Positions 46,319 through 47,275 of a stretch of DNA of 64,000 nucleotides are shown here, in pieces. Positions within the stretch are counted from its first letter, which is position 1; each line of letters opens with the position of its first letter. Below the pieces are notes generated by a model. That model was not told where the DNA came from. It saw only the letters and a program-made list of their open reading frames with translations, and searched no databases. Position numbers and translations under genes: made by a program. The stretch comes from Escherichia coli (lineage in GTDB: Bacteria; Pseudomonadota; Gammaproteobacteria; Enterobacterales; Enterobacteriaceae), in NCBI RefSeq assembly GCF_044324785.1, contig NZ_CP172127.1. One strand, given 5' to 3'.

Positions 46319-46558
46319 TTAGTTAATCAGTTTATCAATCTCAGCAAGAGGTAAATTTGCCATCTCTGCAACGTCTTCCCGAGACATTCCTTTACTCAGA
46401 AGACGCTGGGCGAATTCCTGACTTACTTCCTGTGTTACTTCCTGTATTACCTCTTGTCTTACCTCTTGTCTTACCTCCTGTCTTCCTTCCTGTCTTCCTT
46501 CCTGTCTTCCTTCCTGTCTTCCCCTCTCTTCAAACCACTGCGCCAGCGTCATCATAGA
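46319..46558 (-). CDS. putative intragenic small ORF in frame with the rpnC C-terminus (RpnS-type candidate antitoxin)
   Basis: In-frame ATG-ATG at 46553-46558 (MMTLAQWFEERGRQEG...KLIN, 79 aa) preceded on the minus strand by acGGGAGGGGAGtct, a strong Shine-Dalgarno 3 nt upstream, inside the rpnC coding sequence. Confidence 0.45.
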   Translation of the reverse strand, partial: SMMTLAQWFEERGRQEGRQEGRQEGRQEVRQEVRQEVIQEVTQEVSQEFAQRLLSKGMSREDVAEMANLPLAEIDKLIN

Positions 46559-47275
46559 CTCCCCTCCCGTTTCCCTGTCTCTCACCACACCATAAAACAA
46601 ATCCGCTTGTTCAGTATGACCGCGTTGCAGCATATAGTTTTGCATGGCAACTAACTGACTTCCGCTAGTGTACCCTTCGTCAATCAGCGTGACCAGTTGC
46701 TCCAGCAATAACATTAAGTCGCGCTGGCGAATATGCTTTTGCAGTAGTTCGAGAATCGCAATCCGCCGATGTTGCATGATTTCGTCATCCGGTGTGATGG
46801 TGATATCCACCAGCGGGAAAGGGTTGTTGTAAACGCGTCGCGCCAGCTCCGGCGAGTAAAACATATCAAACCAGCACATTGAGAGCGGATAAGGTGTGGC
46901 CTCGCCCTGATAAAACAGAATCGGCACCACCAGCGGCAGCTTATCGTGATCCGCCTCCAGATGCCGATGCATGGCGGCAATAGAATAACGCATCATGCGA
47001 AAGGTCATTTTCTTATCCGGCTTGCTTTGATGTTCAATCACCACATGCAAATAACCGGGATTGCCCTGCATTTGCACGGAATAGAGCACGTCAGTGCTGT
47101 GTCCTTTCAGGCTTTCTTCAATAAAACTCCCCGACTCAAGATGCAGCGTGTCGAGGTCACACAGTTCGCGTAGCTCCGCTGGCAAATGGATATCCAGAAA
47201 GTCGCGAGCCGTTTCCGCGTGCATTAAAAATTGTTTAAACACCGCATCATGCGGTGTGGTACTCGGTGCATCCAT
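46319..47275 (-). CDS. rpnC: recombination-promoting nuclease RpnC (YhgA-like / PD-(D/E)xK family), long-repeat allele
   Basis: 318-aa ORF MDAPSTTPHDAVFKQFLMHAETARDFLDIHLPAELRELCDLDTLHLESGSFIEE...; 18 aa longer than K-12 YadD (300 aa) through a repetitive RQEG/RQEV tract; position between panC and panD. Confidence 0.9.
   Translation of the reverse strand: MDAPSTTPHDAVFKQFLMHAETARDFLDIHLPAELRELCDLDTLHLESGSFIEESLKGHSTDVLYSVQMQGNPGYLHVVIEHQSKPDKKMTFRMMRYSIAAMHRHLEADHDKLPLVVPILFYQGEATPYPLSMCWFDMFYSPELARRVYNNPFPLVDITITPDDEIMQHRRIAILELLQKHIRQRDLMLLLEQLVTLIDEGYTSGSQLVAMQNYMLQRGHTEQADLFYGVVRDRETGGESMMTLAQWFEERGRQEGRQEGRQEGRQEVRQEVRQEVIQEVTQEVSQEFAQRLLSKGMSREDVAEMANLPLAEIDKLIN
46417..46524 (-). repeat. 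Degenerate in-frame 12-bp tandem repeat array inside rpnC
   Basis: 9 units (cctgacttactt, cctgtgttactt, cctgtattacct, cttgtcttacct x2, cctgtcttcctt x3, cctgtcttcccc); encodes GRQEGRQEGRQEGRQEVRQEVRQEVIQEVTQEVSQE. Confidence 0.95.

Follow-up and report, generated by a model that had tools for sequence, protein, structure and literature searches.

The stretch of DNA analysed here, a window of 64,000 nucleotides, includes a pan locus of Escherichia coli, in which panB and panC lie on the plus strand, rpnC (also named yadD) lies on the minus strand, and panD occupies positions 47549-47929. The order panD-rpnC-panC is the same as in K-12. The long product of rpnC, RpnC-L, matches the Rpn family model of NCBIfam (TIGR01784) with 283 bits against a cut-off of 52, and is 90% identical to RpnC of K-12, from which it is separated by one 20-residue gap, situated inside a tract of repeats, and by differences at six of the N-terminal 240 residues. 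As expected of a long Rpn protein, RpnC-L carries a predicted YhgA-like PD-(D/E)XK nuclease domain at its N-terminus (Table 1). Because this domain ends at residue 207, the internal start described below falls beyond it, where the C-terminal domain begins. When the proteins were compared with PADLOC-DB v2.0.0, a collection that holds no Rpn model, RpnC-L had no match and the small proteins of the locus had only weak ones (E about 1e-3), to unrelated families; within the Rpn group, anti-phage defence has been demonstrated for the plasmid gene RpnP2 and not for RpnC (Zhong et al., 2023, PMC10400941).

Table 1. Coordinates of the features of the rpnC locus, given as positions in the window
Feature	Position	Strand	Source or remark
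rpnC (yadD), full-length ORF, RpnC-L, 318 aa, predicted PD-(D/E)XK nuclease toxin	46319..47275	-	ORF list
YhgA-like nuclease domain, residues 7-207	46655..47257	-	Pfam PF04754 Transposase_31, E 1.6e-86, model positions 1-201 of 203
Reduced synonymous variation, rpnC codons 176-245	46541..46750	-	16 distinct Escherichia rpnC sequences
Weak candidate internal promoter, TGGTCA-17-TACACT	46667..46695	-	relaxed hexamer scan only, 4/6 match in each hexamer
Shine-Dalgarno sequence, GGGAGGGGAG	46559..46568	-	GGAGG 7 nt before first ATG, GGAG 6 nt before second; identical in K-12
Internal start codons ATG ATG (M241, M242)	46550..46555	-	same codons open the published RpnC-S construct
rpnC-S reading frame, putative intragenic antitoxin, 78 aa from first ATG (77 aa from second)	46319..46555	-	translation
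Repeat tract of rpnC, nine 12-nt (4-aa) units: GRQE x4, VRQE x2, VIQE, VTQE, VSQE	46415..46522	-	TRF and translation
rpnC-Ss, stand-alone second small-protein copy, 89 aa, own start; nine-unit repeat tract at 46083-46183	45981..46250	-	ORF, TRF

A ribosome-binding site and two start codons inside rpnC

A sequence-only reading of this DNA had proposed that a Shine-Dalgarno (SD) sequence and two in-frame Met codons lie inside rpnC, and we confirmed this arrangement on the minus strand, where GGGAGGGGAG (46568-46559) is followed by tct and then by ATG ATG. Set out by codons, the stretch reads gac agg gaa acg GGA GGG GAG tct ATG ATG acg ctg, with GGAGG at 46567-46563, a second GGAG at 46562-46559, and the SD built from the Gly codons GGA and GGG. 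The first ATG (46555-46553) and the second (46552-46550) are codons 241 and 242 of the 318 codons of rpnC and are in frame with it. Two details of the earlier reading needed correction: the Met codons had been placed at 46553-46558, three nucleotides too high, and the small C-terminal product that begins at the first ATG is 78 aa long, the 79 given for it being the number of codons with the stop included. With these adjustments, rpnC has an in-frame internal start codon, equipped with a ribosome-binding site, between the nuclease domain and the C-terminal domain.

The strength of this site stands out within the window. In a ranking of all 2071 ATGs on both strands by the predicted duplex energy between their upstream sequence and the 16S rRNA 3' end, this pair came 12th and 21st (the top 0.6-1%). 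The pattern GGAGG-N5-9-ATG occurs three times in the 64 kb, against 8.1 +/- 3.0 expected from dinucleotide shuffles, and the two occurrences outside rpnC each serve as the start codon of a long ORF, one of 146 aa and one of 288 aa. Since this class of motif is depleted and its other members sit at the starts of long ORFs, it is avoided inside genes in the window, and the motif within rpnC is not a chance match. Predicted mRNA structure near the start is weaker than average, without being an outlier, as 17% of codon positions show as little structure or less, and it thus weighs on neither side.

The same start has already been mapped in K-12. After ribosome profiling with Onc112 or retapamulin, an internal initiation signal was found in all five rpn genes of E. 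coli K-12, that of rpnC appearing in Figure 2D of the report (Zhong et al., 2023, PNAS, PMC10400941), and SPA-tagged RpnC-S and RpnC-L were both detected by immunoblot in K-12 (PMC10400941). Moreover, a list of genes whose in-frame internal starts are conserved includes yadD (Meydan et al., 2019, bioRxiv 10.1101/520783). The supplement to the bioRxiv version of Zhong et al. gives the RpnC-S cloning primer, 2C_fwd, as ggaattcaccATGATGACGCTGGCGCAG, and both the RpnC-S construct and the gBlock of that study open with ATGATGACGCTGGCGCAG. By alignment, the window matches MG1655 rpnC at every base of the SD, of both ATGs and of the next 41 positions, and in the 126 nucleotides upstream of the first ATG it differs from K-12 only at -37 and -30, so that the start in the window corresponds, base for base, to the experimentally defined start of K-12 RpnC-S. 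The internal start is therefore no new discovery: in K-12 it has been defined to the base pair and proven by experiment, and the checks suggested in the sequence-only reading have been carried out there as well (PMC10400941). That reading had likened the arrangement to the intragenic RpnS antitoxins, and the likeness is borne out by the publication of this architecture for the same gene in K-12 (PMC10400941) and by the identity of the sequence around the start. In the E. coli RefSeq records that we examined, the small product is not annotated as a separate feature.

Conservation of the start within Escherichia and across Enterobacterales

Of 5426 complete E. coli genomes, 5115 contain the 75 nucleotides that surround the start, 5113 of them at 95% identity or more. 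Among the Escherichia loci examined, the SD varies only at the third base of GGG and by one G-to-A change just before GGAGG, both of which leave GGAGG intact, and no Escherichia rpnC examined shows a change in either ATG. In one natural allele (L097), a TAA stop codon stands five codons ahead of the SD and ATG, and the small ORF is preserved.

Synonymous variation among the Escherichia sequences is about halved across roughly 200 nucleotides upstream of the internal start: codons 1-175 have 0.50 variants per codon, whereas codons 176-245 have 0.23 (Fisher p 0.0013, computed on sequences that are not independent). Codons 176-245 presumably carry the internal promoter, 5'UTR and ribosome-binding site of a short transcript, and Zhong et al. 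cite dRNA-seq evidence that each rpn gene contains a transcription start site (PMC10400941). A standard promoter scan of the rpnC coding strand found no consensus promoter, and the weak candidate that a relaxed scan returned (Table 1) may be the internal promoter but is unproven in that role.

For a wider comparison, we assembled 73 loci with Rpn relatives from contigs representing one genome per species, in Escherichia, Citrobacter, Klebsiella, Salmonella, Serratia, Pantoea, Erwinia, Rahnella and other genera, and aligned the 64 that hold an intact ORF of at least 200 aa (41-93% identity). Every one of the 64 has an ATG in the slot occupied by M241 and M242, in the M242 column in 61 cases and in the M241 column in three. 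The residues that precede the start differ from one homologue to another (HKEK, QEKEK, HEEE, HGEK, HGDK or TGGES), and their DNA retains AAGGAG, GAGGAGG or GGAGA 5-7 nucleotides before the ATG. Across the 49 distinct upstream 18-mers, the SD duplex energy averages -8.2, as compared to -4.87 +/- 0.38 after synonymous recoding, in which the same peptides were encoded with the genes' own codon usage, and none of the 500 recodings reached the observed value. Codon choice near the start is skewed in the same set of homologues: Lys is encoded by AAG and AAA in a ratio of 32:8 (262:532 gene-wide), and all 18 Gly residues in the six codons before the start use GGA or GGG (407 of 936 gene-wide). Because the SD exceeds what synonymous recoding yields and codon usage near the start is biased, the SD must have been selected as a nucleotide signal. 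The supposition that the SD is unlikely to be needed for the sequence of the full-length protein is thereby upheld, in that the amino acids it encodes vary (KE, EE, GE, GD, GGE) and its purine-rich character is kept.

The small protein, its repeats and a second copy downstream

In the small protein the first repeat falls at residue 12, which agrees with the range of 8-20 residues reported by Zhong et al. (PMC10400941), and TRF resolved the tract as one of period 12 with 8.8 copies and 90% matches. RpnC-S of the window therefore has the variable four-residue repeats that mark these proteins, which lie in the first helix at a distance of 8-20 residues from the initiating Met. In nearly all homologues, the lengths of the tails likewise advance in steps of four residues (49, 53, 57 and so on, up to 77). 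In comparison with RpnC-S of K-12 MG1655, the gene, its chromosomal position, the SD, the ATG ATG and the C-terminal three-helix region are all the same; what differs is the number of repeats, nine 4-aa units of the GRQE and VRQE types in the window versus four in K-12 (KGIE KGIQ QGRQ EVSQ), and with it the sizes of the long and small proteins (318 and 78 aa versus 300 and 60 aa), as well as the C-terminus, which reads KLIN in the window and KVINLI in K-12.

To place the small protein structurally, we relied on a profile of 37 tails taken from the conserved Met onwards, which matched PDB 7TH0_A, the 49-residue chain of RpnA, with an E-value of 8.7e-12. Position 1 of the profile aligned to residue 1 of 7TH0_A, and the crystallised RpnA-S thus begins at the homologous Met. 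This match points to homology between the C-terminal domain of RpnC and the three-helix bundle of RpnA-S (PDB 7TH0). A PDB search with the full RpnC protein gave only marginal matches, to Trp repressor (E above 0.2), so that 7TH0 was reached by the tail profile only. Matches to pentatricopeptide and designed-repeat proteins ranked above 7TH0 and were rejected as artefacts of the repeats, none of them containing a single significant stretch. The AF2 model of the 78-aa protein is all-helical with a mean pLDDT of 68 (moderate confidence), being helical on both sides of the repeat tract and of low confidence within it; a Foldseek search of this model against the PDB yielded no significant match (best E 0.6) and did not recover the RpnA-S structure.

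The homologues and the crystal structure bear on which of the two ATGs is the true start. A protein with the same function could begin at the second ATG (46552-46550, M242) and be 77 aa long, the first ATG being a feature of the RpnC lineage that sees little or no use, and we rate this option somewhat short of an even chance. In its favour, 61 of 64 homologues have their conserved ATG in line with M242, nearly all of the more distant ones carry a Leu codon (CTG, CTT, TTG or TTA) at the position of M241, and the RpnA-S crystal chain begins at the residue that aligns with the conserved Met. Spacing and energy lend it further weight: the GGAG at 46562-46559 precedes the second ATG by six nucleotides, as in the AAGGAG-N6-ATG of the paralogues, and the duplex energy marginally favours the second ATG (-12.1) over the first (-11.4). 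Given that most homologues outside the RpnC lineage have Leu at the first codon, the family-wide start would be the second ATG. However, the GGAGG at 46567-46563 lies at an optimal distance, 7 nucleotides, from the first ATG, neither ATG varies in any Escherichia rpnC examined, and the published construct that is active as an antitoxin opens at the first ATG. Each ATG is well spaced from its SD element; use of one does not preclude use of the other, and both ATGs may serve as starts.

Directly downstream of rpnC, the window contains a further small-protein gene that is absent from K-12. A second copy of rpnC-S at this position is known from some strains and was termed rpnC-Ss (Figure 2I of Zhong et al., PMC10400941). 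In the window, its product shares 78% identity with RpnC-S along an ungapped alignment of 76 residues. In rpnC-Ss, CAG ACG stands in place of the ancestral ATG ATG, and translation must consequently start at a new ATG 10 codons further upstream. A search with rpnC-Ss as query matched 2014 of the 5426 complete E. coli genomes, 1079 of them with at least 80% coverage, the weakest of the matches listed being to rpnC itself.

RpnC and RpnC-Ss of the window have equal tracts, each with nine 4-aa units and with 38 residues between WFEE and the conserved motif xxR[LF]LxKGMS. Within our sample this equality is confined to the window: it was found at one of 20 sampled loci that hold both genes, and at the 19 others the two lengths differ. 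The same 89-aa allele of RpnC-Ss adjoins an eight-unit RpnC in other genomes, and other Ss alleles occur together with two or three different rpnC repeat numbers. We therefore rejected the idea that the repeat numbers of rpnC and rpnC-Ss co-vary in general; instead, the pairing of single Ss alleles with differing rpnC numbers indicates that the rpnC number changes faster than, and independently of, rpnC-Ss. The equal lengths in the window are most simply a coincidence. If the rule that repeat numbers must match also held between genes, RpnC-Ss would neutralise RpnC-L in the window strain and not in most others, such that slippage of rpnC by a single unit would toggle a second antitoxin, a possibility that we regard as an outside chance.

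RpnC-S as a probable antitoxin encoded within its toxin gene

We interpret the site as an internal translation initiation site of rpnC, from which the antitoxin RpnC-S is produced from inside the toxin gene, and assign this reading a probability of roughly 0.93. Sequence comparison by itself shows that the site exists, that it equals the K-12 site and that its nucleotides are conserved. That the small protein is translated and acts as an antitoxin would follow from the experiments published for K-12, in which RpnS proteins were established as antitoxins of the toxic RpnL nucleases (PMC10400941). In a dinD-lacZ assay, SOS induction that depends on RpnC-L was blocked by RpnC-S only when the two had equal numbers of 4-aa repeats (PMC10400941). 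Direct binding of the small protein to the long one, and the resulting block of DNA cleavage, would be carried over from RpnA, for which RpnA-S was found to bind RpnA-L and to block DNA cleavage in vitro; inhibition is specific to the cognate paralogue (PMC10400941). We infer that the same events take place with the nine-unit allele of the window strain, and that an internal promoter lies upstream of the start as outlined above.

Under this interpretation, ribosomes would bind the GGAGG/GGAG SD (46568-46559) and start at ATG 241, at ATG 242 or at both (46555-46550), most likely on a shorter transcript that begins inside rpnC. The RpnC-S so produced would pair with its counterpart domain in RpnC-L by way of the long first helix, which bears the 4-aa repeats, and the pairing would keep the PD-(D/E)XK nuclease inactive, which would make RpnC-S the antitoxin of a gene-within-a-gene toxin-antitoxin system. 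Pairing would require equal repeat numbers, nine units in the window, and because toxin and antitoxin share a reading frame, they always have the same number.

A small protein could also be made from this start and have a main role other than that of an antitoxin, for instance as a helix-turn-helix (HTH) regulator that binds DNA or as a partner of another Rpn paralogue. The last three helices bear a weak resemblance to HTH domains of DeoR, TrpR-like proteins and resolvases (at Foldseek E-values of 0.6-2, which are not significant), the Pfam family for the C-terminal region is named HTH_Rpn_C, and Zhong et al. noted both a relation to HTH motifs detected by HHpred and possible housekeeping roles (PMC10400941). 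Against such a role, RpnC-S blocks the SOS induction caused by RpnC-L and must match it in repeat number to do so, RpnA-S both binds RpnA-L and prevents it from cleaving DNA in vitro, and inhibition is limited to the cognate paralogue, all of which leaves a different main function highly improbable. The faintest prospect of all is that the SD-like run merely follows from the sequence of the linker peptide (RETGGES), or is a chance run of purines, and at most slows ribosomes and initiates nothing. Even if SD-like sequences do occur within genes, in K-12 the identical sequence has been mapped as a start and used as one in experiments, all 64 homologues retain the ATG while their linker residues differ, none of the 500 synonymous recodings gives so strong an SD, and GGAGG-N5-9-ATG is depleted in the window and otherwise found at start codons of long ORFs.

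Read as an intragenic antitoxin, RpnC-S has several relatives in layout or in function. RpnA-L and RpnA-S share with RpnC the homologous C-terminal domain, a start at the aligned conserved Met and the SD-led arrangement of a gene within a gene; RpnA-S is a paralogue, whose crystallised chain of 49 residues has no expanded repeat tract, and it is for RpnA, not RpnC, that complex formation and the block of DNA cleavage were proven biochemically. The stand-alone RpnS genes (ypaA/rpnE-Ss and rpnC-Ss; DUF4351/PF14261) encode the same small domain, but as separate genes with starts of their own. Outside the Rpn family, ArcB-C in E. coli and Cas11d inside cas10d likewise arise from an SD-led in-frame start at a domain boundary that releases a free C-terminal domain. 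These two, however, cooperate with the long protein or act in signalling, whereas small proteins of the RpnC-S type inhibit it.

The production of an antitoxin from inside the gene of the toxic nuclease that it restrains was established for rpnC in K-12 between 2019 and 2023. To this the window adds another natural allele, one with nine repeats and a downstream rpnC-Ss copy, and our analysis independently confirms, on the evidence of sequence comparison, that the start codon and its SD are under selection at the nucleotide level across Enterobacterales. Listing the small product would improve the annotation of these genomes.

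The internal start site of rpnC and its sequence pattern

The pattern GGAGG-N5-9-ATG is scarcer in the window than base shuffling would predict (3 observed in the whole window vs 8.1 expected), and all three of its occurrences mark translation starts: those of rpnC-S (the antitoxin frame inside the toxin gene rpnC), a 146-aa ORF and a 288-aa ORF. Upstream of the internal start, Escherichia rpnC sequences show about half the synonymous variation of the first 175 codons, a reduction with which an embedded promoter and leader would be compatible, judging from sequence; a standard scan of the minus strand for such a promoter found none.

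In rpnC-Ss, the stand-alone second copy of rpnC-S, CAG ACG stands where the ancestral internal start was ATG ATG. The rpnC-Ss ORF starts instead at a new ATG, 10 codons upstream of the replaced pair and preceded by AAGGGA.

Coordinates of the features discussed (window, unless another locus is named)
Feature	Coordinates	Strand	Basis
GGAGG-N5-9-ATG site	46553-46567	-	pattern count, whole window
GGAGG-N5-9-ATG site	49664-49677	-	pattern count, whole window
GGAGG-N5-9-ATG site	57610-57626	+	pattern count, whole window
Lowered synonymous variation	46541-46750	-	Escherichia rpnC sequences
rpnC-S	46319-46555	-	
rpnC-Ss	45981-46250	-	
Replaced start, rpnC-Ss	46250-46210	-	aligned with 46580-46540 (-)
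L087 and L088, shared rpnC-Ss allele	988-2270		compared with 45981-47275
L097, truncated rpnC	988-1932		
L090, orphan rpnC-Ss	1-2234		one genome

Repeat number in rpnC-S and rpnC-Ss

Both rpnC-S and rpnC-Ss of the window strain carry nine 4-aa repeat units. From WFEE to the conserved xxR[LF]LxKGMS motif the tract spans 38 residues in each, and in all 19 other sampled loci with both genes the two tracts are unequal in length. Two comparison loci from other genomes, L087 and L088, encode an 89-aa RpnC-Ss identical to that of the window, and the RpnC adjoining it there is 314 aa long, with three GRQE units vs four in the window. By this sequence comparison, it looks as though window rpnC recently gained one repeat unit.

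Variant loci in other genomes

A contig assigned to an uncultured Oscillospiraceae MAG (L079), but probably a misbinned piece of Escherichia, bears an rpnC fragment with 85% identity to the rpnC of the window and with the exact SD-ATGATG. At L090, rpnC has given way to an IS66-family element (TnpA, TnpB, DDE transposase) whose end lies just ahead of rpnC-Ss, leaving the small gene as an orphan. Among the matches listed, the rpnC of L097 is interrupted at codon 236 by TAA, which lies five codons upstream of the internal start. Its nuclease ORF is truncated while the SD, ATG ATG and small ORF are all kept intact. In this natural allele the toxin frame is in effect split from the antitoxin frame.
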